Assembly: GCA_964585855.1 (NCBI GenBank)
Contig: CAZPFK010000005.1
Coordinates: forward strand, 1,807 to 65,806
Length of the DNA stretch: 64,000 nucleotides
DNA from: an uncultured Vicinamibacteraceae bacterium
GTDB lineage: Bacteria; Planctomycetota; Phycisphaerae; Phycisphaerales; UBA5793
Direction: 5' to 3'
The notes under the pieces were generated by a model, which worked only from the letters and a program-made list of their open reading frames with translations, was not told the origin of the DNA and did no database searches. Below, one piece after another: positions 43,843-63,926 of the stretch (its first letter is position 1; every line of letters starts with the position of its first letter). Made by a program: the position numbers and the translations under genes.

Positions 43843-45414
43843 ATGCGTGAACGCTCGCTTCTCTCACCTCGTTGCCGACGAATTGCCGGCCTCTGCCTGG
43901 GCGCCGCCCTGGCTCCTGGCGCACTGGCGCAGTCCGATGCCGAAGTCGGAGCCGAACTGCAGGAGGTCGTCAATCAGGCGGTGCAGGGCGCCCTGGCCGA
44001 GAGCGTCCGCATGCCGCCCCCGAGATCGATGCGGGTGGGTGGGAGCGATCCCTTCGAGCCGACCATCACCTCGTCCGAACTGGAACGCATGCAGGCGCGG
44101 CTTGCCTTCGACGCCGAGCAGCAGGCCATCCTCGACCTTCTCTACAGCGGCTATACCGAGGCGATCGATGCCGAGGGCCGGACCATGCGCGACTCGGTTC
44201 CGCCGGCCCGGTTTGATCTGAACTCCGAGGAGGGAATGGCGAAGTTTCACGAGTTGATGCAGCAGCGCGATGAGATGATGAAGCAGTGGCGGCAGCGCCG
44301 TCAGGAACTCACCTCCGATTTCCTCTCCAACGTCGAGTCACTCCTGGCTCCCAGTCAGGAGGGTTCCTGGAGTGCCTATGAACGCGACCTCCGTCGCCGG
44401 CAGCAGTTGTCACGGCCCGGACAGGTCTCCGGTGAGAATGTCGATCTCGTGGCGGTCGTGGAGCGGCTTGAGATGTCAGCCGACATTCGTGTCGAGATCG
44501 ATCCGATTCTGGAGCAGTACGCGGCCGAGATGGATGCCGCGCTTACCGAACGGCAGACCGCTCTCGACGCCCGGCGGGAGATCATCGGCGACCCCGGCCA
44601 GCCGCGACAGGAGGGCATTGACCGGGAGTCGATGCAGGACCGGCAGGTCGATGTGCTCAAGGCCGGCCACGCCGTGACGCAGATCAATCGGCGGTACCTG
44701 GAGACCATCGCCGGCCTGCTGGACGGATCGACGGCGTCGGCACTTCGGGCCGAGTTCAACCGCAGCGCGTTTCCGTACGTCTTTTCGCCGACACCGGCGG
44801 AGGGGTATCTTGAAGATGTGCTGGCGATGGAGTCGCTGAGCGACTCGCAGCGGGAGCAGGTGCGGATGATCGGCGCTGAGCATGAGGAGCAGCTGGCCAT
44901 CGCCAACGACGAGATCGTCGGCGTCGAGATTCGCGCTGAACGCGAGCAGTATGAGATCCTCGCCGGCATCAGGGAGCTGCCGCAGGAGGAGGGCGATCAG
45001 GTGCGCATGATGACCTTTGTCTCCTCCGGCGACGATCAGCCCATGATGCACATGAGTCTCGGGGAGTCGCAGGAGATTCGTGAGGCGAGATTCGCCGCGC
45101 TGCAACGCAAGGACACTCTCGTCCGGGAGACGATCGATCGCATCTTCGGCATCCTCAACCCGGAGCAGCAGACATTGGCGGCTAAGCCCGAGTTCAATCG
45201 AAACCAGCCCATCTTCTCGCCGACCGGCGCCCAGGTGCAGGAGTTCCGTCTGCCCGGAGGCGGCCAGGGCCGTGTCATGTTCATAGGCCCCGAAGGCGGG
45301 TTGCCGGAGGGAGCGGAGGTCAGCGTGATGGTCGCGCCGGGAGGCGAGGCGACTGTCGAGATTCAGGCCGAGGAGGGGGCCGGCGGCGACGATGCTGAGG
45401 ACGATGAGAACTGA
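43843..45414 (+). CDS. Secreted, helical, charge-rich hypothetical protein with an acidic C-terminus.
   Basis: Signal peptide ending ALAPGALAQS and an AAAGGAA RBS. Repeated xxEQQ/xxSQR strings; tail EEGAGGDDAEDDEN. Confidence 0.65.
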   Translation: MRERSLLSPRCRRIAGLCLGAALAPGALAQSDAEVGAELQEVVNQAVQGALAESVRMPPPRSMRVGGSDPFEPTITSSELERMQARLAFDAEQQAILDLLYSGYTEAIDAEGRTMRDSVPPARFDLNSEEGMAKFHELMQQRDEMMKQWRQRRQELTSDFLSNVESLLAPSQEGSWSAYERDLRRRQQLSRPGQVSGENVDLVAVVERLEMSADIRVEIDPILEQYAAEMDAALTERQTALDARREIIGDPGQPRQEGIDRESMQDRQVDVLKAGHAVTQINRRYLETIAGLLDGSTASALRAEFNRSAFPYVFSPTPAEGYLEDVLAMESLSDSQREQVRMIGAEHEEQLAIANDEIVGVEIRAEREQYEILAGIRELPQEEGDQVRMMTFVSSGDDQPMMHMSLGESQEIREARFAALQRKDTLVRETIDRIFGILNPEQQTLAAKPEFNRNQPIFSPTGAQVQEFRLPGGGQGRVMFIGPEGGLPEGAEVSVMVAPGGEATVEIQAEEGAGGDDAEDDEN

Positions 45415-45442
45415 TTCGTCACACGGCTGCATGCAGAAAAGC

Positions 45443-45478
45443 CAACAACGGGCAATCCGACCGGGTCGCCCGTTGTTG
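45443..45478 (-). terminator. Intrinsic terminator for paralog A; may also serve the convergent + strand gene.
   Basis: An 11-bp perfect stem, CAACAACGGGC (45443-45453) pairing with GCCCGTTGTTG (45468-45478). On the minus strand it is followed by CTTTTCT. Confidence 0.7.
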
Positions 45479-45513: not shown

Positions 45514-46647
45514 TCAGCCGATGATGATCACGTTCGACGTGCCGCACGTCGCGCCGTCAATGGCCTGAACGTGAATCCGATTGCAGGCGGCCTGGGGAAC
45601 GTTTCCGGAGATAGATGCGTTGCCGGAGCCGTTCGCATTCACAATCTGGATCAGAGTGACCGGAGCGGCCAGACCAGTCGTCGTGCCGGCGCAGGCGCCG
45701 CCCGGGATCACGAACGAGCCGGCGTTGTTGGACCGCAGGAACGCAACCGGGCCGCCCGGCGTTGCCCCTGTGGCCGATACGGTCTTGCTTCCCGGGCAGC
45801 CGGGTGACTGGCTGATGACAAAACCGCCGCCGCAATTGGGCTTGATGGCACCGTCGCTGGTCTCATACTCGGGGAGACCGGTGCCGAAGTTGAACGGGCC
45901 GATGACGTCAACGCGGGCCTTCGGGCCGGTTCCGGTCCAGAGCTCAGTCAGGAAGGCACCGGCGTTGAAGGCACAGTGGTAGAAGGTTCCTGAGCCGGTG
46001 CGGTCCGTCGTCGTGCCTTGGGCGAAGTTCGCATCGAACCCCTGGAAGGGCAGGAGCACCGCCGCTCCGACCGGGCCGGCCCAGCTGAACTCTGCATCAT
46101 TGACGAGATCCTGCGCATAGAAAGTGCCGCCTGCATCAATGGCCAGACCGGTACACAGTGCGGAGAACCCACCCGTCGTCGTCGAGCCGAGATTCGTCGC
46201 CAGGCCCGTCGTCAGGTTGATCGAGTAGATGTTGAAGTTCGGCACCGACGAGGACGCTCCGATTCCGTACATTGTGCCGGAGCCATGGTCAAAGGCCATA
46301 TCCGTAATGATCTGCCCGGACAGTACGCCGCCTGAGCCGATGAATGTCGCCGCCCCGGTGGACTGGCTGATGCTGTAGAGGCCGACAGCGCCGGTCTGAA
46401 CGTAGCCGTACAGGTTGCCGTTGCAGTCAAAGTCCATACCGGAGAAGAGCGAACCCGTGAAGCCGGTACGGCCGATGACCACATCGCTGAAGGCGGGAGC
46501 CGCGGCGTCAAAGGTGATGATGCGGTCCCCTCCTGGGCCGACGTTGAAATCGGCGAGGTTATCGGGCGCCCAGATGGTGGGGGCCGCAAAGGATGTGGCT
46601 CCAGCGAAGCACAACGACACGATAAAACCAGTTGCAGCAGACTTCAT
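45514..46647 (-). CDS. Secreted repeat (beta-propeller-like) protein, paralog A of a tandem trio, with a Cys-rich C-terminal domain.
   Basis: ATG at 46647 preceded by AAGGAGAG. Signal peptide then APTIWAPDNLADFNVGPGGDR. Repeated blade-like strings MDFDCNGNLYGY, MAFDHGSGTMYGIG and LAIDAGGTFYAQDL. Confidence 0.8.
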   Translation of the reverse strand: MKSAATGFIVSLCFAGATSFAAPTIWAPDNLADFNVGPGGDRIITFDAAAPAFSDVVIGRTGFTGSLFSGMDFDCNGNLYGYVQTGAVGLYSISQSTGAATFIGSGGVLSGQIITDMAFDHGSGTMYGIGASSSVPNFNIYSINLTTGLATNLGSTTTGGFSALCTGLAIDAGGTFYAQDLVNDAEFSWAGPVGAAVLLPFQGFDANFAQGTTTDRTGSGTFYHCAFNAGAFLTELWTGTGPKARVDVIGPFNFGTGLPEYETSDGAIKPNCGGGFVISQSPGCPGSKTVSATGATPGGPVAFLRSNNAGSFVIPGGACAGTTTGLAAPVTLIQIVNANGSGNASISGNVPQAACNRIHVQAIDGATCGTSNVIIIG

Positions 46648-46723
46648 GACTGCTCTCCTTCGTTGGTCCTTCAATCGTCCCGAAAGGAACACCCTTTCCG
46701 GCGACATATCCGGACCATCAGTT

Positions 46724-46751
46724 AATCTGCATCCGAAAACCAAAACGTCAA
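46724..46751 (-). promoter_or_regulatory. Sigma70-like promoter candidate for paralog A.
   Basis: Minus strand reads TTGACG, 16 nt, CAGATT, about 77 nt upstream of the start, followed by TGATGGTCCGGA, which is shared with paralog B. Confidence 0.35.
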
Positions 46752-46810
46752 GATGCCGCAAGTCACACGCCATCTGATTGCTGCAAGTCGGCCTGCGGAA
46801 TGGAGTTGCA

Positions 46811-46854
46811 GACGAAGAAAAAAGCATCGAGCGGCCCGGAAGGACCGCTCGATG
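46811..46854 (-). terminator. Intrinsic terminator for paralog B.
   Basis: CATCGAGCGG (46825-46834) pairs with CCGCTCGATG (46845-46854). Minus-strand T tract CTTTTTTCTTC. Near-identical to the element at 48193-48233. Confidence 0.75.
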
Positions 46855-46886
46855 GCTTGCCCGTGTGCAGGATTCATCCTGTTCCG

Positions 46887-48020
46887 TCAGAGAACGATAT
46901 GGACATTCGACGTCGCACAGGTCGTCTGGTCAACGGCCTGAAGCATCAGCCGGCCGCAGGCGGCATCCGGCAACGTTCCGCCGATGATGACGGTTCCATC
47001 GCCGTCGGCCTGAAAGGTGCCGACGAGAACGACCCGGGGGCCGAGGTCAAGCACGGTTCCGGCGCAGGGTCCGGTCGGCAGGGTGAAGTTGCCTCGGTTG
47101 AATGATCGGAAGAGGCAGACGTCTCCATTGGGGGTTGCACAGGTGATGCGCAGGCGGTAGTCGCCGGGGCAGTCGCCTTTGCCGGTCAGTTCAAGTTCGC
47201 AGGCGCCGCAATTGGGGCGAATCGCGCCGTCGCTGGTTTCATACTCAGGAAGGCCGGTGCCGAAGTTGAACGGACCGATGACATCTACGCGGGTCTTAGC
47301 GCCCCCGTAGGCCCCGCCCTCGTACTTCCACAACTCGCAGAGAAACGCCCCGCTGTTGAAAGCGCAGTGGTAGAAGTCGTCGTCTCCGGTGCGATCCGTC
47401 GTCGTGCCCTGGGCGAAGTTGGCGTCGAAGCCCTGGAAGCCGATGCTCACGCCCGCACCGACTGGGCCGGCCCAGACGAACTCAGAGTCTGAGATCAGAT
47501 CCTGACCGTAGAAGTCTCCGGCCGCATCGATGGCCAGACCGGTGCAGAGAACGCCGGTGGTGCTGACGGTGCCGAGGTTGGTGGCCACGCCGCTGCTCAG
47601 GTCGATCTCGTAGATGTTCGGATTGCTGAACGAGCCGATGCCGTACATCGTGTTTGCGTCGTGATCGAAGGCGATGTCGGTGATGATGTCGCCCGAGAGC
47701 ACGCCGCCGGAGCCGATGAAGGTGGCCGCGCCTGTGGACTGATCGATGCTGTAGAGGCCGACTGCTCCGGTCTGCACATAGCCGTACAGGTTGCCGTCGC
47801 AGTCAAAGTCCATGCCCGAGAAGAGCGAGCCCGTAAAACCGGTGCGCCCCACGACGGCGGGCACTGCCGGTGCGGCAGCGTCATAGGTGATGACGCGGTC
47901 ACCACCCGGGCCGACGTTGAAGTCAGCGAGGTTGTCGGGGGACCAGATGGTGGGACCTGCGGCCAGCATCGAGCCGGTCGTCATCGCTGCAACAACAAAA
48001 CCAGTGACACGCAATCTCAT
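46887..48020 (-). CDS. Secreted repeat protein, paralog B.
   Basis: ATG at 48020 preceded by AAAGGAGAG. GPTIWSPDNLADFNVGPGGDRVITYDAA and MDFDCDGNLYGYVQTGAVGLYSI. Its C-terminal Cys-rich domain is more diverged than in A and C. Confidence 0.8.
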   Translation of the reverse strand: MRLRVTGFVVAAMTTGSMLAAGPTIWSPDNLADFNVGPGGDRVITYDAAAPAVPAVVGRTGFTGSLFSGMDFDCDGNLYGYVQTGAVGLYSIDQSTGAATFIGSGGVLSGDIITDIAFDHDANTMYGIGSFSNPNIYEIDLSSGVATNLGTVSTTGVLCTGLAIDAAGDFYGQDLISDSEFVWAGPVGAGVSIGFQGFDANFAQGTTTDRTGDDDFYHCAFNSGAFLCELWKYEGGAYGGAKTRVDVIGPFNFGTGLPEYETSDGAIRPNCGACELELTGKGDCPGDYRLRITCATPNGDVCLFRSFNRGNFTLPTGPCAGTVLDLGPRVVLVGTFQADGDGTVIIGGTLPDAACGRLMLQAVDQTTCATSNVHIVL

Positions 48021-48099
48021 GGCTTCTCTCCTTTTGATTGGCTGTTTCCGGAAACTCCCGCGGATCACGCCTCGGGATTAAGTTTCCGGACCATCGTTC

Positions 48100-48128
48100 A
48101 GAATGCAATGAGAACCAGCCTCTGTCAA
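48100..48128 (-). promoter_or_regulatory. Sigma70-like promoter candidate for paralog B.
   Basis: Minus strand reads TTGACA, 17 nt, CATTCT, about 80 nt upstream of the start. Confidence 0.35.
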
Positions 48129-48192
48129 GGGAACAGAGTGCGAACGATGATCCGATCGTTCAGAAGATGCTGTAGATACTCGGGTTGAAGTT

Positions 48193-48233
48193 GCAGAAAA
48201 ATACATCGAGCGGCCCGGAAGGGCCGCTCGATG
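48193..48233 (-). terminator. Intrinsic terminator for paralog C.
   Basis: Perfect 13-bp stem CATCGAGCGGCCC / GGGCCGCTCGATG with a GGAA tetraloop (48204-48233). Minus-strand T tract TATTTTTCTGC. Confidence 0.85.
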
Positions 48234-48274
48234 AGTCAAATCAGAGTGCGAACCGAATCCAGAGTCAGCAGACC

Positions 48275-49396
48275 TCAGTTGAGGGTGATGACGTTGGACG
48301 TGCTGCAGGTCGCGCCGTCAACGGCCTGAACTTCGATCACGCCGCAGGCGGCCGCAGGGACGTTACCGGAGAGGACCGCAGTGCCGGAACCGTTGGCATT
48401 GACGATCTGCACCAGGGTCACGGGAGCGGCCAGACCGGTCTGCGTGCCGGCGCAAGCGCCGCCGGGGATCACGAAGTTACCGGGGTTGTTGGAGCGGATG
48501 AAAGCAACCGGACCGCCGGCGGTGGCGCCGGTGGCGGTGATGCTCTTGTTGCCGGGGCAGCCCGAAGACTGATCGATGGAGAAGCCGCCGCCGCAGTTGG
48601 GGACGATGGCGCCGTCGCTGGTCTCATACTCGGGGAGACCGGTTCCGAAGTTGAACGGGCCGATGACGTCAACGAGGGTCTTGGGGCCGGTGCCGGTCCA
48701 GAGCTCGGTCAGGAACGCGCCGGAGTTGAAGGCACAGTGGTAGAAGGTGTCATCGCCGGTGCGATCGGTCGTCGTGCCCTGAGCGAAGTTGGCGTCGAAG
48801 CCCTGGAAGCCCAGGCCGGTGCCGGCGCCGACCGGGCCGGTCCACACGAACTCCTGGTCCGTGATGAGATCCTGACCGTAGAAGTTGCCGGCCGCGTCGA
48901 TGGCCAGACCGGTGCAGAGGACGCCGGTGGTGCTGACGGTGCCGAGGTTGGTGGCCAGACCGGTGCTCAGGTTGATCGAATAGATGTTCGGATTGCTGAA
49001 CTGGCCAATGCCGTACATCGTGCCTGAGTCGTGATCGAAGGCGATGTCGGTGATGATGTCGCCGGAGACCAGACCGCCGGACCCGATGAGGGTCGCAGCG
49101 CCGGTGGACTGATTGATGCTGTAGAGGCCGACGGCGCCGGTCTGAACGTAGCCGTAGAGGTTGCCGTCACAGTCGAAGTCCATACCGGAGAAGAGCGAAC
49201 CGGTGAACCCGGTGCGGCCGATGACCACGTCACTCGTGGCGGGGTTGGCGGCGTCGAAGGTGATCACTCGGTCACCGCCGGGGCCGACGTTGAAGTCAGC
49301 CAGGTTGTCCGGAGCCCAAATGGTCGGGGCTGCAAAAGCGGCCGACGACACTGTAGCAAAACCGATAGCAACAAGAAGGTTCTTCACTTTACTCAC
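48275..49396 (-). CDS. Secreted repeat protein, paralog C.
   Basis: GTG at 49396, or GTG at 49387, which sits 8 nt after AAGGAG. The sequence is very similar to paralog A along its whole length. Confidence 0.8.
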   Translation of the reverse strand: MSKVKNLLVAIGFATVSSAAFAAPTIWAPDNLADFNVGPGGDRVITFDAANPATSDVVIGRTGFTGSLFSGMDFDCDGNLYGYVQTGAVGLYSINQSTGAATLIGSGGLVSGDIITDIAFDHDSGTMYGIGQFSNPNIYSINLSTGLATNLGTVSTTGVLCTGLAIDAAGNFYGQDLITDQEFVWTGPVGAGTGLGFQGFDANFAQGTTTDRTGDDTFYHCAFNSGAFLTELWTGTGPKTLVDVIGPFNFGTGLPEYETSDGAIVPNCGGGFSIDQSSGCPGNKSITATGATAGGPVAFIRSNNPGNFVIPGGACAGTQTGLAAPVTLVQIVNANGSGTAVLSGNVPAAACGVIEVQAVDGATCSTSNVITLN

Positions 49397-49470
49397 TCCT
49401 TTGTGTGGCGCTCAGGAAAACCTGCGGCAGGACGTTCCGCCGAGATTGACAGGCCTTCCCAAGTGCTACA

Positions 49471-49499
49471 AACGTACCAGATGATAGCGGAGGCGTCAA
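49471..49499 (-). promoter_or_regulatory. Sigma70-like promoter candidate for paralog C.
   Basis: Minus strand reads TTGACG, 17 nt, TACGTT, about 75-85 nt upstream of the start. Confidence 0.3.
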
Positions 49500-49665
49500 T
49501 GCATCGGAACCGCGATTCCATCGAGAATTGCAGATTTATTCCTGACTTCGTACTTTCACACGCACTCTCAGGACGAGTCGCAAGATTCAGCGGACATCTC
49601 CGCAATCCTAACGTCAGATAACGTTGATCGTGTGACGCCGCGAGACGTCCAATAAGCGAGATGTG

Positions 49666-51249
49666 TCAGATCCCGCCCGCCGTCCCCGTCTCGCCGCGGC
49701 TCCGGCATCGCGCCACCACGATCGTGATGTCATCGGGCTGCTCGTTGAAGCCGAGGAATCGCCGCGCCTCCCAGTACACATGGTCCACGATCCCCTGAGC
49801 CGTCGCATCCGCGTGCTCGGCCAGGTACGTCCGCACCGCCTGCTGCGCTGCATCCTTTCCGAAGCGCCGGCCTTCGAAGTTCATCACGTCGGTCAGCCCA
49901 TCCGAGTACACGACCAGCACATCGTCGGGACGCAGATGGAAGATGCCCTTCTCATACCGTTCCGTCGGATCGATCCCCAGCGCCATCCCGCCCACATCAA
50001 GCGTCGAGGTCTCGATCGTGCCGCCGGGTGAACGACGGAAAATCCACGGCCGCTCATGTCCGGCATTGGCGTAGGTGAGCCGCGCGTGCATGGGATCGAA
50101 GACGCCGTACCACAGGGTTGCGAACTCCTCCTCAAGCGTGTCCTGAACGAGGGCGCGGTTGGTGCGCGCCATGACACCATCGAGGTCGTAGAGATCCAGC
50201 GCGTGTGCCCGCAGACTGGCCCGGACCGAGGCCATCAGCAGCGCTGCCGGGATGCCCTTGCCCACGACGTCGCCCAGCGCCAGGCCGACACTTTGGCCCA
50301 GTGCGATGAAGTCGAAGAAGTCGCCGCCCAGTTCACGTGAGGGCAGGTAGCGCGCTGCAAACTCGATCGTCGGTAAACTCGGCAATTTCTGCGGGAGCAT
50401 GCGCTTCTGCACATCAGTCGCCAGCCGCAACTGCCGCTTCATTTCCCGCTCCGCCCGACGCTCCTGTATCAGCCGGGCATTCACCACGGCGACCGCAATC
50501 TGCTGGGCCGCGAGGCGCAGCAGATCCCGCTCATGCGGGTCGAAGCGACGGACGCTGCGCGTAAAGAGCCGCATCACACCGACGGCCTTGCCTCGGAACA
50601 TGATGCCCGTACAGAGGAAACTCCGCAGCCGCTCGCTCTCGACAAGGTCGGGAAAGCGCACGCGATCGTCGGTGCGAAGATCCTCCACGTACACGACCTC
50701 GCCTGCGAGCGCTGCCTGGTCCAGTTCGCTGTCGGCGGCGAAGACGGGCCCGCGTTCCCGATAATCCTCCGAGAGGTTCATCCAGGCCGTCGGTACCAGG
50801 ACGCCCGTATTCTCATCCAGCAGACGGATTGATCCGGCGTCCACCTGCATGACCTGGATCACGACCCGCAGGGCGCACTCCAGGATCTCCTGCACCGATG
50901 CCAGTCCGGCCAGTGCCGCGGAGACGCGGTAGACGGCCGCGAGCTCCGAGACCCGGTGGATCAGCTCATCCTCTTCGGTAAGTATCGTGCCCAGGACGTC
51001 GGCGGCGAAATCCAGCCATCGCTGGAGGTCGGCTGTCGGTGTGGCGGCGGATTCCGGTCCCCGAAGCCAGCCGACGGTCCGCCCGCCGAGGCGAAAGGGA
51101 GAGCAGGGGGTCGATTCGGGGGAGGTGGGGCCCCAGTGGATACTCAACGGGGCATCGAGAAGGCCCGAAAGTGCGCGGACAAAGTCAAGGGCCCGTTCCT
51201 GCCCCGCAGGAGGCTGAGCGGGGTCGGCAGTCGTTGGTGGGATGGTCAT
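49666..51249 (-). CDS. GAF-domain SpoIIE/PP2C-family phosphatase (cytoplasmic).
   Basis: ATG at 51249. GAF-like VDAGSIRLLDENTGVLV...VYVEDLRTDDRV. PP2C strings GGDFFDFI...GLALGDVVGKGIPAALLM and VLVVYSDGLTD. Confidence 0.85.
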   Translation of the reverse strand: MTIPPTTADPAQPPAGQERALDFVRALSGLLDAPLSIHWGPTSPESTPCSPFRLGGRTVGWLRGPESAATPTADLQRWLDFAADVLGTILTEEDELIHRVSELAAVYRVSAALAGLASVQEILECALRVVIQVMQVDAGSIRLLDENTGVLVPTAWMNLSEDYRERGPVFAADSELDQAALAGEVVYVEDLRTDDRVRFPDLVESERLRSFLCTGIMFRGKAVGVMRLFTRSVRRFDPHERDLLRLAAQQIAVAVVNARLIQERRAEREMKRQLRLATDVQKRMLPQKLPSLPTIEFAARYLPSRELGGDFFDFIALGQSVGLALGDVVGKGIPAALLMASVRASLRAHALDLYDLDGVMARTNRALVQDTLEEEFATLWYGVFDPMHARLTYANAGHERPWIFRRSPGGTIETSTLDVGGMALGIDPTERYEKGIFHLRPDDVLVVYSDGLTDVMNFEGRRFGKDAAQQAVRTYLAEHADATAQGIVDHVYWEARRFLGFNEQPDDITIVVARCRSRGETGTAGGI

Positions 51250-51547
51250 CGGGTGGCTGGAAGTCAGGGTATCCGGCGGCCTCGGAGCGTCAACGTGTGC
51301 GCAATTCTCAAGAGCGCACGGGGCCCGGTCCGGACGACATCGGCCTAGAATGGCGGCCCGTCTTGCCGCGGGGGTCGTGTTCCCGGCCGGGATCGCCGAT
51401 GGAGGGTCATGGCGGCCCCCGAATCTGGCCGATTCGACAGAACAGATTCGTTCGTCTCTGCGGACATCGGAGCCCCCGCACAATTCGACATCTCAGTCTC
51501 ACTCCCGTCTCCGCATAAAACCGGAGGCGACTTCAGGAAATCGCACG

Positions 51548-57151: not shown

Positions 57152-57835
57152 TCAGCCGACGACCGGCCGGTCGATGACCATGACCTCATCGAGCGGCTTG
57201 CGTGTGATGGCCGGAACCATGCAGCCCTCCGCCGGGTAGCCGACAGGGATGAGCAGGTAGGGACGTTCATGCGCCGGTCGGCGCAGGATTTGTGCAAGGA
57301 ACTTCATCGGACTTGGCGTGTGCGTCAGAGTTGCGAGGCCGGCATGGTGTGCGGCGGCCAGCAGCAGGCCGACGGCGATGCCGACGGACTCATCGACGTA
57401 GTAGACCTGCCCGCCCTGATCAGTTCGGACGAGCTTGAAGACGACGATGAGCCAGGGAGCAATTTCCAGGAAGGGCTTGTGCTCATCCGTACCGAGCGGG
57501 TGCAGATCGGCCAGCCAACGCTCTGACGCTCGGCGTGTGTAGAACTCGCGCTCCTCGGCTTCGGCCGCCTCACGGATCTCCCGCTTGATCGCCGCATCCC
57601 GGACGGCGACAAAGCGCCAGGGCTGGATGTTGGCGCCGGAGGGGGCGGTGGCGGCGGCGGCGATGATGGTGCGGATCAGTTCCTCGGGTACATCACGGTC
57701 AGAGAAGTCGCGGACGGAGCGGCGTTGCGCCATGATCGTGCGGAAGCCCTCCACGGCGGCCAGCGGATCGCCGGGCGGGAGATAGGGCCGCAGCGGAGCC
57801 ATGACCGGCGGCTTGGGGTGATCGGGGGCGGCCAT
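57152..57835 (-). CDS. Nitroreductase-superfamily flavoprotein (iodotyrosine-deiodinase-like subgroup by motif resemblance).
   Basis: RRSVRDFSDRDVPEELIRTIIAAAATAPSGANIQPWRFVAV and PWLIVVF. Confidence 0.85.
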   Translation of the reverse strand: MAAPDHPKPPVMAPLRPYLPPGDPLAAVEGFRTIMAQRRSVRDFSDRDVPEELIRTIIAAAATAPSGANIQPWRFVAVRDAAIKREIREAAEAEEREFYTRRASERWLADLHPLGTDEHKPFLEIAPWLIVVFKLVRTDQGGQVYYVDESVGIAVGLLLAAAHHAGLATLTHTPSPMKFLAQILRRPAHERPYLLIPVGYPAEGCMVPAITRKPLDEVMVIDRPVVG

Positions 57836-58001
57836 GGGGTTCTCCTGGGGGCCGGGGCGGGCTCGTGATTTTTTTCACAGATTCCGGCGGATCGGTGCGG
57901 AATGGTCTTTTTCGCATCAATATACTTCCGCCACAACGCTCTACCGACCACAGGCCCGCTCTGCATTTCGGGCCGCGGATGGCTTGCGCAGGAGAGGCTC
58001 C

Positions 58002-61000
58002 ATGCCGGTTACGACAGAAACTTTCCGCAATCAGAACGTGCTTCACCGGGTCTTCGCAGTCGCGTCGATGCTGCTGGTGCTCTCGGTGATCATCGCCGTG
58101 ATTCAGGACTGGAACCGGGAGTTCCGCCGGCCGCAGACGCAGGCCCGAATCTGGAACGGGGCGATGGCGCAGTTCGAGACGGAGATCGCCGAGTACAAGG
58201 CCGAGCAGGCGGACCTTGAGGCGAAGGAGTCGCAGCTGGCTGAGATGATCGCCTCGGTGGAGATGAGCGAAGAGTATCGCGAGCTGGAGTCGCGCATCGA
58301 GGAACTGACCGTCGCGCGGAACATGCTGGCCAAGAACCTCTCGCTGCACGTCACGGGCAACATTGCGCCGGTGCAGCAGCAGATTCAGAACCTCGAAGCG
58401 CTTCTTGACATCAATGAAGGCACCGACGAAGAGCGGCAGCAACTCCAGACGCTGCGCGATGAACTGAAGGGCTACCTCAGCCAGAAAATCGAAGGCGAAA
58501 ACCAGATCGCCGCATGGGATGCCGAGATCAGCGAGCTCAAGGGCAGGCAGCGGGAACTGCGAGCGGCCTTTGCCGATCTCGAAGCCCAGGTCACGCAGAT
58601 GAAGACGGATCTGGCCAAGAAGGTCGAGACCTTCAAGAGTTTCGAGCCCGACCTGGCCGGCCGCATCGGCAACTTTGTGCGCAATCAGCCGCTGCTTGAC
58701 TGGATGAACCCTTCGATCCGGGTCAAGCAGCAGCAGGTCACAGGCGTGCTGACGGACCTGAACGTGATGACGACCTTCACGCTGGACCGGTGCATGTCCT
58801 GCCACACCAACATCGACGATCCGAAGTTCACCGAAGAGGCGGTCATCGACTTCCTCGAGTCGCAGGTCGCCTCCGACGAAGGCGAGGCGGTGCTCGCCCT
58901 GGGCGACATCAGCCCTGTCACGGCGCTGGACTATTGGGAGAACTCCATCCTCGCCATCCCTGACAGCAGCGAGGGCGCCTCGCGCCGGCTTCGGATCGCC
59001 CGCCGGCAGGCGATGGAGTCCTTCAACCGCCTGCTCCGGCGCGCCGAGCCCGAACATGCCTTCGCCTCGGCCTGGAAGTCGCAGGAGGCGCCCGATGCTG
59101 AGAGCGTTCCGGTGCTTGAGGACGATGCCGATCTCCAGTCCTTCTTTGTACTCGTGCGCACCTCGTCGCAGCGTCCGCTGGACTGGCAGGAGTGGTACCG
59201 CCCGCTGACGGTCTACCGCACAATGCTGCACGAGATCGTGCGCGACACGCTCGATGAATCTGACTACCGCGCCTTCATGGACGGCTATCGCCGGGAGCTG
59301 ATCGCCCGATACAACGGCAACGCCGATGAGACCGGTCGTCGGAAGCTGGCGGCCGGCCGTGAGTTGCTGGCGCATCCGCGTCTTGATCTCTACGCCCACC
59401 CGGACTCGCGGCACCCAATCGCGACGATGGGGTGTACGAGCTGCCACTCGGGCTCGGGTGAGGAGACGCAGTTTGTGCACACGGCGCACACGCCGTCGGC
59501 CATCTGGGTCGATGAGGAGACGGGCGCTCTCGTGGCCGACTTCCAGGTCGCGATGACCGGCTCGAAATCCGACGTTTCGCGGGCATTGCTCAACGGCTCG
59601 GGCGAGGCCTCGGCGGCTGCGCCGGGCGAGGCGACTGTGCTGCAGGCGTCCTACGACGAAACCGCGTCAGAGCAGGACCCAGCCCACGACGAGGCGCATG
59701 GCGACGAGACAGCGCACGATCACGACCATGGGCACGGCCCGACAGTGATGGATGGCCGCTACTACTCCGACGCCTCAGAACTGGAGAATCCATTCGGCCC
59801 CATCGGCGCGTATGACCATGCCGAAGCGGCGATTTACGTCGATCCGGTGAGCGGGGAGCGCCGCCGCGCGGTGCATCAGAAGGATTACTGGAAGAAGCGC
59901 TACGGGTGGAAGCAGATCGAGTTCCACTACTGGGAGCGGCCGATGCACGAGCTCCGGTACGTGGAGTCATCCTGCATCCGCTGCCACACGGAAGTCGCGG
60001 AGATCGACCAGGAGGCGACGACGCTGGCCAAGGGCCGGGAACTCTTCACCGAGGTCGGCTGCATCACCTGCCACCCGGTGGAGGGTCTGGGCAGCCCGAT
60101 TCGCGGACAGCAGACAATCCCGGACGTCCGGCAGGTCGGGCCGAGTCTGGAGAACGTGCGGCACAAGCTCAGCGAGGAGATGATGGCCTCGTGGATCTGG
60201 GCGCCCAAGGCGCTGCGGCCCAACACGCGCATGCCGCACTACTTCATGCTGGAGAACAACTCCACGCCGCTGGACATCCGCCGCACCCGCGCGGAGGTGG
60301 CGGCAATGGCCCACTTCCTCGCCTCTGAGCCGCAAGACGCCGGCTGGACGCCGTCGGGCGACGCCTACGAACCTGCGCCGATTCCGCAAGAGGTGAACGG
60401 TTCGGCCTCACGCGGTCGAGAGCTCTTTGCATCGCTTGGGTGCCTTGCGTGCCACGCCAATGTGAACGAGCATGGGCAGGAGATGGTGGCGCTGGACCTG
60501 CAGGAGCGGTTCGGCCTTGATCGCGACGGCGCCCTGGCCCGCATGGCCGAGGATGCACGTGCGGTGGCGGAACTCCCCGACGCCTCGGAGGCCGATGAGG
60601 AGAACGTCGGCTTCTTCGAGCTTGATGAGTCCGGCCGGCCGACGACGCGCATCCGCCCTGATCAGTTCAATCGCCTGCAGTGGTACCTCATGGCGCACCA
60701 GTCGGAGGAGTACACGCGGGTCGGCCCCGATCTGTCCACGGTCGGCACCAAGCTGCTGACCGGCCAGAGCGAGGAGAAGGCGCGGCAGTGGCTCTTCAAC
60801 TGGCTGCTGGCTCCGGAGCACTACTCCAGCTACACGGTCATGCCCTCCTTCCGTCTGACCGAGCAGGAGTCGGCCGACCTGACCGAATACCTGCTGACGC
60901 AGAAGCATCCGCAGTATGAGATCGCGCCTTTCGAGGTCGATCCGCTGATGGTCGATGCGATCCTGATTTCGCTTGACCGCAATGCGATCTCGGAAGCCGC

Positions 61001-63926
61001 GGCGACGGCCCGTGTCGAGGCGATGAGTCTCGAGGAACGCCGGCTCGAACTCGGCAAGCGCATGATCCAGCACTACGGCTGCTACGGCTGCCACCAGATC
61101 GGCGGCTTCGACTCCTCGCTGACCGTCTCGGCCGACCTCACGACATGGGGCCGCAAGGACCCGCACAAGCTCGACTTCGGCTACTTCGATCACGCCTACG
61201 ACGATCGCCGGCCGCCGGATGCGGATGTCTGGACGACGCACCGCAGCGGCCTGGATGTGACGGCGCCGATGGTCACCGAGAAGAGCGTCGGCGAGGGCGG
61301 CATCGAGAAGAAGACCGTTCCGTGGGAGCACCTGCACATCGATCGGCGCGGATACCTCGAGTCGAAGCTGCACAACACGCGCATCTTCGACCGCAACCGC
61401 GCCTCGCTCGAAGGCGAGATGGCGGACGACGGCCGCACGATTCTGACCGACAAGGGCGGCCAGGGGCTGCGCCTTGTCGAAGAGAATGGGCGATTTATCG
61501 ATCTGGCGACCGGCGAGGACAGCGGACTTTCGGCAGATGAGGTGCGAATCGCGGGCCTCGGCGATCCGTATCTGAAGCTGCGTATGCCGACCTTCTTCCT
61601 GCAGGATGAAGAGGTGCATGCGCTGGTGACGTATGTGACGGGGCTTCAGCCCCCGCTGGTGCGTGCCGAGTTGCAGGACACGACCGATGAGTTCGGGCAG
61701 ATGCGTGCCATGGGCAAGTACATGGCCAAGGCCTTCAACTGCTACGGCTGCCACAACATCGAGCGCAACACCCCGCTGATCCAGCAGTATTTCACGATCC
61801 GAAACGACGACGGCTCGATGGATTACTCGGCAACGCAGGAGAACCTGACCAATGCGCCGCCGCGCATTGTCGGCAACGGCGCCAAGACGCAGCATGACTG
61901 GTTCTACACCTTCCTCTCCAACGTGGAGATGCTGCGGCCGTGGCTGGAAATCCGCATGCCCAGTTACAATCTGGAACCGGCCCACAATCAGTTCCTTGTG
62001 GAGTACATCGCCGGGCAGACGCGGACCGACAGCCGCCACCTCGAAGAGGCGCTGGCGCCGGTGAACAGCCGCGTGCGTCAGGCCTTCGAGACGACGTACT
62101 CAAAGACCTACGCCGACGCGGTCGCCTCCGGACAGGCCGGTATGGCCGCGGATACGCTGGCCAAGTCCGCCGCCTCGCTTGAGGCCGGACGGATTATGCT
62201 TGAGCCGGCCAACCGCACGGCGCGGCGGCATCTTGCCGAGCTGGCGTCGAAGTATCAGTTGTATTCGCCCAACCAGTTGCCCTCGATCGACATGCCCGAG
62301 GAGGAACTGGCACGGAAATACGGCCAGATCTGGTACGACTTCGCCTTCCTGCGCGATGCCTACGAGCAGGTCCACTATCCCTTCCAGGACAGCAAGCGCC
62401 CGGAACTCACGCCTGAACTGCACGCCCGGGGACTTGGCCTCGTCGAGACGCTGGGGTGCTTCAAGTGTCACGCCTTCGGCGACGAGGAGAAGCTGCAGCG
62501 CATCTTCGATCTCAAGCAGGAGGAGATGGCAGCGCTGATGGGCGACATGGGCGGCGATGATGAGGAGGGCTACGAGGGCTACGGCGACGAGGAGGGCTAC
62601 GGAGACGAGGGCGGGTACGGCGAGGAGGATGGGTACGGAGAAGACGACGGGTACGGAGACGAGGGTGGCTACGGTGACGATGACGGTTACGGCGAAGAGC
62701 CGACCGAGGCCCCCGAGCCGACGATGTACGACGCCATCACCGCGCCCAACCTCGCCATCGCGCACGAACGCCTGCACGCCTCCTTCTTCAAGAACTGGCT
62801 CCACAAGCCGCCGACGCTCATGCCCGGCACGAAGATGCCCAACCTCTTCGGGCCCGACGGCAACCAGAGCGCCTTTGCCGCCTTCCCCGAGCCGCAGAAG
62901 TCGGAGTACGAAGCGCTCTACGGCAAGACGGCCGATGAGCAGATCGAGCTGATCATCCGCTGGATGGAGGCGGCCGGCGCTGCGGGGTACACCTACGAGG
63001 AGGAGAAGTACCTCGCCGGTGAGTCTGCAGCTGCCGTCGATCGTCAGGCGATCCTCGACCAACTCGCCGCCGAAGCGGAGGCACAGGCAGCCGAGGAATC
63101 CGCCGAGTCCGGCGACGCAGGCGGCGTTATCGAGGAGGTCCCATCCGATGAGCCCGTCGAACAGCCGGCCGAGCAGCCGGCAGAGACGCCGGCCCCGGTC
63201 GAGGAGGCCCCGATGGAGATGAGCCAGGAGGAGAAGGCCTCCGCACGCGATGATGCCGTCAGCAGCGTGATGGATGGTGTTGCGGCCGGTGTGGGCCGGA
63301 TCGTGGGGGTGGTGGTGGCGGAGAATCCGCCGAGGCCACGACGCCTGCGGAACAACAATGCCGACTGCATCGCTGCCCGTTCAAGGATCGGGACGCCGCT
63401 CTTCGAGTCTGCTGTCACCGTCAACCGTAACGGCACGCTTTCGGATGTCGTTATTGGCGTCGGCAATCCTCCCGAAGGGGACTGGTCGCCGCCTTCAACG
63501 CCGGTTGTCATTGATCAGCTGGGCTGCGAGTACATCCCGCATGTCTCGGCTTCGATGACGGGGCAGAACATCGAGATCAAGAACAGCGAGCCGATTTCCC
63601 ACAACGTCAACTCGACGCCGCAGTTCAACCCTGCGTTCAACGTCAGCCAGCCCATGCAGGGGATGGTTCACAACGTCGTGATGGAGAAGCCCGAGGACGC
63701 CATTCGGCTCAAGTGCGACGTTCACACCTTCATGAACGCCTTCCTCTTCGTCTTCGAGCATCCCTTCTTCGACGTCACACGCACCGACGGCGTCTACGTG
63801 ATCGACAACCTGCCTCCCGGCGAGTACACCCTCGAAGTCTGGCACGAGCGTGGCGGGACGCAGACGGTGACAGTCACCGTCGAGGCCGGCAAGGCGGTGC
63901 GGCAGGATCTCACCGTCGCCTTCTGA
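58002..63926 (+). CDS. Giant membrane-anchored multiheme c-type cytochrome with an N-terminal coiled coil and a C-terminal cupredoxin-like domain.
   Basis: ATG at 58002 after GGAGAGG. TM segment VFAVASMLLVLSVIIAVI. A ~250-aa heptad-rich E/Q/L segment. Eight CxxCH sites at 58791, 59433, 59973, 60060, 60441, 61080, 61740 and 62457. The C-terminus carries H...CDVHTFM. Confidence 0.9.
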   Translation: MPVTTETFRNQNVLHRVFAVASMLLVLSVIIAVIQDWNREFRRPQTQARIWNGAMAQFETEIAEYKAEQADLEAKESQLAEMIASVEMSEEYRELESRIEELTVARNMLAKNLSLHVTGNIAPVQQQIQNLEALLDINEGTDEERQQLQTLRDELKGYLSQKIEGENQIAAWDAEISELKGRQRELRAAFADLEAQVTQMKTDLAKKVETFKSFEPDLAGRIGNFVRNQPLLDWMNPSIRVKQQQVTGVLTDLNVMTTFTLDRCMSCHTNIDDPKFTEEAVIDFLESQVASDEGEAVLALGDISPVTALDYWENSILAIPDSSEGASRRLRIARRQAMESFNRLLRRAEPEHAFASAWKSQEAPDAESVPVLEDDADLQSFFVLVRTSSQRPLDWQEWYRPLTVYRTMLHEIVRDTLDESDYRAFMDGYRRELIARYNGNADETGRRKLAAGRELLAHPRLDLYAHPDSRHPIATMGCTSCHSGSGEETQFVHTAHTPSAIWVDEETGALVADFQVAMTGSKSDVSRALLNGSGEASAAAPGEATVLQASYDETASEQDPAHDEAHGDETAHDHDHGHGPTVMDGRYYSDASELENPFGPIGAYDHAEAAIYVDPVSGERRRAVHQKDYWKKRYGWKQIEFHYWERPMHELRYVESSCIRCHTEVAEIDQEATTLAKGRELFTEVGCITCHPVEGLGSPIRGQQTIPDVRQVGPSLENVRHKLSEEMMASWIWAPKALRPNTRMPHYFMLENNSTPLDIRRTRAEVAAMAHFLASEPQDAGWTPSGDAYEPAPIPQEVNGSASRGRELFASLGCLACHANVNEHGQEMVALDLQERFGLDRDGALARMAEDARAVAELPDASEADEENVGFFELDESGRPTTRIRPDQFNRLQWYLMAHQSEEYTRVGPDLSTVGTKLLTGQSEEKARQWLFNWLLAPEHYSSYTVMPSFRLTEQESADLTEYLLTQKHPQYEIAPFEVDPLMVDAILISLDRNAISEAAATARVEAMSLEERRLELGKRMIQHYGCYGCHQIGGFDSSLTVSADLTTWGRKDPHKLDFGYFDHAYDDRRPPDADVWTTHRSGLDVTAPMVTEKSVGEGGIEKKTVPWEHLHIDRRGYLESKLHNTRIFDRNRASLEGEMADDGRTILTDKGGQGLRLVEENGRFIDLATGEDSGLSADEVRIAGLGDPYLKLRMPTFFLQDEEVHALVTYVTGLQPPLVRAELQDTTDEFGQMRAMGKYMAKAFNCYGCHNIERNTPLIQQYFTIRNDDGSMDYSATQENLTNAPPRIVGNGAKTQHDWFYTFLSNVEMLRPWLEIRMPSYNLEPAHNQFLVEYIAGQTRTDSRHLEEALAPVNSRVRQAFETTYSKTYADAVASGQAGMAADTLAKSAASLEAGRIMLEPANRTARRHLAELASKYQLYSPNQLPSIDMPEEELARKYGQIWYDFAFLRDAYEQVHYPFQDSKRPELTPELHARGLGLVETLGCFKCHAFGDEEKLQRIFDLKQEEMAALMGDMGGDDEEGYEGYGDEEGYGDEGGYGEEDGYGEDDGYGDEGGYGDDDGYGEEPTEAPEPTMYDAITAPNLAIAHERLHASFFKNWLHKPPTLMPGTKMPNLFGPDGNQSAFAAFPEPQKSEYEALYGKTADEQIELIIRWMEAAGAAGYTYEEEKYLAGESAAAVDRQAILDQLAAEAEAQAAEESAESGDAGGVIEEVPSDEPVEQPAEQPAETPAPVEEAPMEMSQEEKASARDDAVSSVMDGVAAGVGRIVGVVVAENPPRPRRLRNNNADCIAARSRIGTPLFESAVTVNRNGTLSDVVIGVGNPPEGDWSPPSTPVVIDQLGCEYIPHVSASMTGQNIEIKNSEPISHNVNSTPQFNPAFNVSQPMQGMVHNVVMEKPEDAIRLKCDVHTFMNAFLFVFEHPFFDVTRTDGVYVIDNLPPGEYTLEVWHERGGTQTVTVTVEAGKAVRQDLTVAF
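62551..62700 (+). repeat. Imperfect 18-nt tandem coding repeat giving about nine G-Y-G-(D/E)3 units.
   Basis: GGDDEEGYEGYGDEEGYGDEGGYGEEDGYGEDDGYGDEGGYGDDDGYGEE. Confidence 0.85.

Follow-up and report, generated by a model that had tools for sequence, protein, structure and literature searches.

Secreted propellers of the DUF4394 and DUF6923 families (PF14339 and PF21959) carry a signal peptide and a recurring blade motif, and many of them finish in PEP-CTERM. As defined by Haft et al. 2006 (PMC1569441), the latter is a tail of about 25 amino acids (aa) that combines a PEP motif, a transmembrane (TM) helix and an Arg cluster. Propellers of the NHL/YWTD type, such as the PknD sensor, Pizza, LRP6/LRP2 and TolB, are extracytoplasmic, non-catalytic binding propellers. 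A third point of reference is the C-terminal domain of the type IX secretion system (T9SS; Por_Secre_tail, PF18962/TIGR04183), a beta-sandwich of ~80-100 aa that occupies the extreme C-terminus of many unrelated secreted proteins. The present study deals with three consecutive minus-strand genes, paralogs A, B and C, in a stretch of 64,000 nucleotides (nt) from an uncultured Vicinamibacteraceae bacterium of the Planctomycetota (GenBank assembly GCA_964585855.1, contig CAZPFK010000005.1, positions 1,807 to 65,806); this whole stretch is referred to as the window. We show herein that the locus is a tandemly amplified, DUF4394-type secreted propeller family with concerted evolution, and that each protein ends in a domain of an uncurated family, here called the tail.

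A, B and C have the signal peptide and the blade motif h-x-h-D-x-x-G-x-h-Y in common with the DUF4394/DUF6923 propellers; the motif recurs in all three and, by what is established for NHL repeats, is the blade signature. Those relatives, however, are 260-320 aa long and end in PEP-CTERM or in a TM helix plus Arg, whereas A, B and C end in a folded domain of 105 aa with predicted disulfide bonds. The two kinds of end take the same slot after the last propeller strand (...GDLAVKAVPEP... for PEP-CTERM and ...SDGAIVPNCGGG... for the tail), but the tail is a folded soluble domain without a PEP motif, TM helix or Arg cluster. No match to PF07589 was found in A, B or C, whose termini read ...SNVIIIG, ...SNVHIVL and ...SNVITLN, while the homologs P0005 and P0006 do carry PEP-CTERM. 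In A, B and C, the tail replaces the PEP-CTERM-type anchor of the propeller's nearest relatives. The likeness to NHL/YWTD propellers lies in profile and fold; identity is only 11-19%, and the kinase, EGF or TolB N-domain context is missing. Compared with the T9SS domains, the tail has four conserved Cys, occurs also by itself and in tandem, and is carried, where the carriers are named, by metagenome-assembled genomes (MAGs) of Planctomycetota, Gemmatimonadota and Myxococcota.

The genes are laid out as follows:

45514-46647, minus strand: paralog A, 377 aa; signal peptide at about residues 1-21 (boundary ...SFA/APTIW), predicted six-bladed propeller, predicted C-terminal beta-sandwich

45514-45516, minus strand: stop codon of paralog A

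46887-48020, minus strand: paralog B, 377 aa; architecture like that of A, divergent 8-Cys tail subtype

48275-49387, minus strand: paralog C, 370 aa, GTG start; mosaic, with a B-like central propeller and A-like flanks and tail

The initial annotation, made from the letters of the DNA and a list of open reading frames (ORFs), had described three tandem copies of a gene for a secreted propeller protein, each with a separate C-terminal module, the three proteins aligning end to end. This description is supported. The ORFs follow one another on the minus strand (45514-46827, 46887-48068 and 48275-49396) and yield proteins of 370-377 aa. Each gene has its own AAGGAG, and starts were picked 7-8 nt 3' of it: ATG at 46647 for A (7 nt), ATG at 48020 for B and GTG at 49387 for C. 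The starts chosen for B and C reproduce identical database proteins (P0003 and P0001, respectively), and A with its chosen start is an exact sequence in a public protein collection (P0191). The signal peptides proposed earlier, here assigned to the Sec type, are borne out by N-termini in which positive charge is followed by a hydrophobic, signal-peptide-like segment ending right before (A/G)PTIW. A lipoprotein reading of the signal peptide of A (VSLC) was dropped by eye, because Leu is an unusual residue at -1 of a lipobox and the corresponding Cys is missing from B and C. Every motif string quoted earlier is present in all three proteins, namely (A/G)PTIW(A/S)PDNLADFNVGPGGDR, MDFDC(D/N)GNLYGY, (I/M)AFDH..(G/N)TMYGIG, LAIDA(A/G)G.FY(A/G)QDL, FDANFAQGTTTDRTG and GPFNFGTGLPEYETSDGAI; B has in addition a 5-residue insertion ahead of the last blade (the KYEGGAYGGAK loop). 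The repeat unit measures ~1370-1390 nt with the intergenic terminator included, and the copies are shown to have arisen by tandem duplication of this ~1.37-kb unit, terminator and all.

The age of the array was another matter. A and C had been thought identical at most positions, which overstated their likeness: protein identity is 64% for A-B, 78% for A-C and 69% for B-C, and DNA identity is 68%, 77-78% and 73-74%, respectively. The long identical DNA stretch reported for A and C near 45851 and 48611 is real, but it extends over only 63 nt, broken by a single mismatch into runs of 30 and 32 nt, and encodes an invariant peptide, VIGPFNFGTGLPEYETSDGAI; no pair of copies shares an identical run longer than 36 nt. 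Synonymous divergence (dS) between the copies reaches 0.6-1.1 over the propeller, near saturation, so that the duplication is, by this measure, old and not recent as had been supposed. All copies are under purifying selection. The ratio of nonsynonymous to synonymous divergence (dN/dS) of the propeller is 0.14-0.17 between paralogs and 0.07-0.12 between a gene and its counterpart in other samples; for the tail, the latter comparison gives 0.04-0.08. These counterparts come from independent short-read assemblies. They are A2 (P0002; Logan runs SRR27710282 and SRR27710280), a gene of the A-like kind with 86% DNA identity to A, and a B-like gene, B2 (P0190; Logan runs SRR27710278 and SRR27710276), with 85% DNA identity to B. 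Since A-like and B-like genes that are ~85% identical occur in other samples, the A and B types would seem to have been separate already in a related organism. No C-like gene was found outside this genome in the homolog search.

That the triplication is recent, or that an expanded repeat was misassembled into three copies, is next to inconceivable. The genes do stand in tandem with a period of ~1370-1390 nt, and the related Logan assemblies fragment into 1.2-kb contigs with a single gene each. However, a DNA identity of only 68-78% and the high dS already refute both versions, indels separate the copies, purifying selection acts on each of them, and four other runs gave independent assemblies of the A-like and B-like genes. 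An array whose copies are this divergent cannot be an assembly artefact.

The copies have exchanged segments repeatedly. A mosaic test on three-sequence informative sites (maximum chi-square with 200 permutations) was run alongside a sliding-window comparison of identity. In the latter, C follows B over the central propeller and A elsewhere (N-terminal part, last blade and tail). Within nt 287-666, sites at which B equals C outnumber those at which A equals C by 78 to 19; outside this segment, the corresponding counts are 49 and 156. The maximum chi-square for nt 287-666 was 86.3, a value reached by none of the 200 permutations. The counterparts from other samples refine this picture. B2 is 95-98% identical to C over nt 406-540, above the identity between B and B2 (92-94%), while over nt 811-900 A2 is nearer to C (87-88%) than to A (80-81%), and significant segments were also obtained in the triplets A/A2/C and B/B2/C. 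In addition, dS dips locally to 0.24 between A and C in the last propeller segment and to 0.33 between B and C in the middle segment, dips that mark the converted tracts. Taken together, the mosaic signal, the counterpart comparisons and the dS dips make gene conversion among the copies, which the initial annotation had raised, a well-supported reading, with conversion having gone on at different times in different lineages. A is thus composed of middle type 1 and tail type 1, B of middle type 2 and tail type 2, and C of middle type 2 and tail type 1.

The suggestion that the N-terminal part is a DUF4394-type propeller was about right, if borderline. With a gathering cutoff of 29.6 bits, the PF14339 scores of C (38.9) and B (32.2) lie above it and that of A (27.6) just below it, and a precomputed annotation assigns PF14339 to P0001-P0003. 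The match is partial, taking in positions 2-74 or 21-67 of the 230-position model in two stretches per protein, and the similarity therefore sits at the level of the blade repeat. Nothing besides DUF4394 was found by Pfam in A, B and C, and NCBIfam gave no match at E <= 1. An AlphaFold2 model of C (mean predicted local distance difference test score, pLDDT, 80; predicted template modelling score, pTM, 0.73) is all-beta with strands grouped in fours, and DSSP places ~19 such strands over residues 22-241, followed by short strands. The top Foldseek matches are the YWTD domains of LRP6 and megalin (E from 5e-9, for LRP6, upward), DFPase, Drp35 and the six-bladed Pizza. A family profile run against PDB sequences recovered Pizza6/7 (6e-20 to 1e-15), LRP2 (2e-13), the PknD sensor (2e-11) and also TolB. 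In these models the N-terminal domain is an NHL/YWTD-type, six-bladed propeller nearest DUF4394, the predicted blade count being taken from the secondary-structure string and the fold matches. Its nearest non-self homologs, P0005-P0008, are DUF4394/DUF6923 proteins of 260-320 aa with 36-41% identity. Among 37 distant propeller homologs, 15 end in a canonical PEP-CTERM and ~9 more in other tails with a hydrophobic helix plus Arg, as read by eye from the termini.

The three copies of the tail match a profile built from 83 sequences of the tail family:

45517-45840, minus strand: tail of A, 108 aa, from PNCGGG through the last residue; profile E 1e-39

46890-47216, minus strand: tail of B, 109 aa, divergent subtype; profile E 2e-38

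48278-48601, minus strand: tail of C, 108 aa, the copy that was modelled; profile E 1e-38

All four conserved Cys are present in each copy, and the domain ends at the last residue of each protein. A Cys-rich module at the end of every protein had been noted before and was found as described, but its length is ~105 and not ~95 aa, and counted from the PNC motif on it has five Cys in A and C and eight in B, not five to six. The tail of C, modelled by AlphaFold2 with 83 homologs, gave an eight-strand beta-sandwich with a pLDDT of 94.7. A search of PDB sequences with the tail profile returned only noise (E >= 0.14), and Foldseek against PDB only weak, generic FN3/Ig-like matches (E >= 0.035, template modelling score <= 0.54).

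The tail of B is clearly diverged, as the initial annotation had it: it is 44-46% identical to the tails of A and C, which are 78% identical to each other. Tails of unrelated proteins are as near to it (P0092, 51%; P0045, 49%), and the tail of B is, by its sequence, a different subtype, no nearer to those of A and C than to these. Diversification of the module stands to that extent; as an ongoing process it is not backed. The dN between the tail of B and those of A and C is ~0.6, whereas dN/dS between the tails of B and B2 is 0.04, values that describe a constrained alternative subtype, neither decaying nor quickly diversifying. A module swap or an ancient split would therefore fit better than diversifying selection at work today. 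The tail of C is likewise 78% identical to that of P0004, which equals its identity to the tail of A. P0004 (Logan SRR15237806, L001 682-1653) is a protein of 323 aa whose N-terminal domain is unrelated and lacks a Pfam match. The distance of the tail of B from its neighbours and the double affinity of the tail of C point to tails that either were shuffled between genes or co-evolve across genes.

Outside the array, the tail proved to belong to a large family. When 1.84 billion representative proteins were searched exhaustively with the profile, 2278 clusters were found at E <= 1e-3 and 833 at E <= 1e-10. A word-index homolog search with the tail alone found nothing; genome and metagenome scans with the tail alignment gave two loci each, with one Planctomycetota contig common to both, the degenerate pattern being too narrow. 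The family consensus, of ~105 aa, reads G.CPG...GATP.G.VA...G(S)..IP.G.(P)CAGT.LGL...AD..G.A...VP..ACG...QA.D..TC.TSNV. No Pfam family covers the domain and neither NCBIfam nor PDB holds a counterpart; judged by these searches, the tail is a large uncurated family common in uncultured bacteria. Those carriers that have a name are MAGs of Phycisphaerales, 'Planctomycetes', Gemmatimonadetes and Myxococcota, and one further protein that combines a propeller with a tail is encoded in the Planctomycetota MAG JALUVI010000258.

The tail ends at most three residues from the C-terminus in 149 of 153 retrieved proteins, and 126 of 140 complete tail proteins have a hydrophobic N-terminus. Most proteins bear a single tail (142 of 153), while nine bear two and two bear three; in 18 of the 153, the protein consists of a signal peptide and the tail alone. 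For example, two adjacent genes of this kind occur in a 'Planctomycetes bacterium' (GCA_013112555.1, JABFGK010000002.1; L007 5283-5672 and 5998-6375), so the tail family has been tandemly duplicated elsewhere too. The partner domains, surveyed in 146 proteins, are mostly binding modules, FG-GAP being the commonest (PF14312, 16/146), and include DUF4394, PQQ, Kelch, PD40, DUF4082, LTD, C-type lectin and CBM96. Our literature search met with no paper that combines Planctomycetes, PEP-CTERM and FG-GAP. As for the cysteines, the aligned tails retain all four in 129 cases, none in 7, only the second and fourth in 6 and only the first and third in 2, a pattern of joint loss that predicts disulfides Cys1-Cys3 and Cys2-Cys4. 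A Cys-free tail, with all four conserved Cys replaced together (7/145 aligned tails), is found in P0040 of an uncultured Planctomycetales (CAYFOM010000043.1, L005 3323-4327).

The reading that we favour, with some reserve, is that A, B and C go back to old tandem duplications of a gene for an exported protein with two domains, in which the propeller binds a ligand and the tail attaches or targets it at the cell surface or in the matrix. The protein would be exported across the inner membrane via Sec, oxidized in the periplasm, and would act at the cell surface or in the extracellular matrix. There the propeller would bind its ligand, and the tail, which sits in the exact slot of the relatives' PEP-CTERM or TM-plus-Arg anchor, would hold or target the propeller to a component of the envelope or matrix. 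The three copies may have been kept as a small repertoire of ligand and attachment specificities. In short, the products are probably cell-surface or extracellular binding proteins with a tail for attachment or targeting. Several points weigh against this reading. Neither DUF4394 nor the tail family has a known ligand, localisation or phenotype, and no paper mentioning DUF4394 was found. The predicted blade count derives from the secondary-structure string and the fold matches. The tail also stands alone behind a signal peptide (18/153) or in two to three tandem copies (11/153), and the loci of the stand-alone tail genes show no conserved neighbour. The neighbours of the array in the window (gyrB, an alpha/beta hydrolase, dapF, a 523-aa secreted protein, a GAF-SpoIIE phosphatase and UDP-glucose dehydrogenase) suggest no link to its function.

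Other roles can be given to either domain. The tail might be a module resembling a carbohydrate-binding module (CBM), which would fix the propeller to a polysaccharide, either an algal glycan or the cell's own exopolysaccharide. Its beta-sandwich fold agrees with this, as does its stand-alone and tandem occurrence, which is typical of CBMs, and the weak best Foldseek matches include the CBM-bearing glucanotransferase 3wnn, CBP21 and the FN3 domain of chitinase A1. Those matches, however, are not significant, and the Pfam families listed for the 146 tail proteins include no catalytic domain of a glycoside hydrolase or polysaccharide lyase, the partners being mostly propellers and lectin-like binders; we regard a CBM-like tail as fairly unlikely. 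Instead of binding anything, the tail could be a sorting signal for a secretion or attachment machine, perhaps removed in the process, like the T9SS C-terminal domain or PEP-CTERM. Its place at the extreme C-terminus, the great diversity of the secreted passengers fused to it, and its position in the slot where homologs carry PEP-CTERM all speak for such a signal; so does the equal nearness of the tail of C to the tails of P0004 and A, which would be expected if tails co-evolve with a shared partner. Yet the stand-alone secreted tails and the double and triple tails weaken the idea, and are more in keeping with a binding or structural module than with a sorting signal that is cleaved off. A, B and C have no match to PF18962/TIGR04183 in Pfam or NCBIfam at E <= 1, nor to any NCBIfam sorting-domain model, and no T9SS C-terminal domain is among the 50 listed Foldseek matches of the tail. 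No candidate sorting enzyme is encoded nearby, either in the window or at the loci of stand-alone tails. On balance, a sorting signal of this sort is unlikely.

Along the same line, the tail may be the recognition domain of an undescribed sorting or surface-attachment system in Planctomycetota, Gemmatimonadota and Myxococcota, a counterpart in function of the T9SS C-terminal domain or of PEP-CTERM/exosortase. We hold this to be a doubtful proposition; were it true, the two tail subtypes (that of A and C versus that of B) would route similar propellers to different destinations or partners. As to the propeller, it could be an enzyme of the SGL, DFPase or Drp35 lactonase type instead of a binding module. 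Drp35 and DFPase are indeed among its Foldseek matches (at about E 1e-7), and the distant homolog P0006 scores above the Pfam SGL cutoff (28.5 versus 26.3 bits). Against this, A, B and C themselves have no SGL match, the top profile matches are the non-catalytic NHL/YWTD propellers (Pizza/PknD 6e-20, then LRP2 and TolB), and no conserved set of metal-ligand residues was identified. An enzymatic propeller is very unlikely.

Each copy appears to be a separate transcription unit, as it has its own AAGGAG and a hairpin downstream:

48204-48233, minus strand: intrinsic-terminator-like hairpin and T-run downstream of C, 13-bp stem, homologous to that of B

46825-46854, minus strand: intrinsic-terminator-like hairpin and T-run downstream of B, 13-bp stem

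45430-45475 (approximate, by eye), minus strand: unrelated GC-rich hairpin followed by TTTTCT downstream of A, sequence CAACAACGGGCGACCCGGTCGGATTGCCCGTTGTTGGCTTTTCT, unlisted by the hairpin scan

The hairpins 3' of B and C align with 86% identity over 50 nt (repeat family D6). Upstream, the spacers ahead of A and B share blocks, one of which is a TTGAC element ~100 nt before the start codon, and the region upstream of C is unrelated to both. A sigma-70 promoter scan found no site. Across the window, a profile search found no further copy of the propeller or the tail domain, and an Rfam scan (1-64000) found no family at gathering score.

On the plus strand, 43843-45414 encodes the 523-aa protein, which has a signal-peptide-like start, an acidic C-terminus and no Pfam match; it is convergent with A, and the 100-nt spacer between the two contains the terminator-like hairpin of A. 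Directly upstream of C, on the same strand and after a gap of ~280 nt, lies the GAF-SpoIIE (PP2C-type) phosphatase gene (49666-51483, minus strand), and nothing indicates that this phosphatase regulates the array. Farther away, 57834-63926 (plus strand) is an ORF of 2030 aa with cytochrome c domains (PF00034, 5e-20), a C-terminal CarboxypepD_reg domain and sub-threshold MtrC/MtrF-like and c554 matches, resembling a giant haem-binding protein. The G+C content is 0.61-0.62 over the array (46001-50000) and ~0.64-0.69 in the rest of the window.

By themselves, A, B and C are ordinary, a conserved tandem family of secreted propellers in an uncultured bacterium, although they provide a clear case of gene conversion giving rise to mosaic paralogs. 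The tail family is the more useful lead: it folds confidently in prediction, spans over 2000 representative clusters, and nearly always forms the final domain of the secreted proteins that carry it; within the present propeller family, the tail and PEP-CTERM-type anchors alternate. Once curated, the family would provide an annotation for thousands of hypothetical proteins. Moreover, an anchoring or sorting role of the tail, if found, could reveal how surface proteins are displayed in poorly studied diderm phyla.

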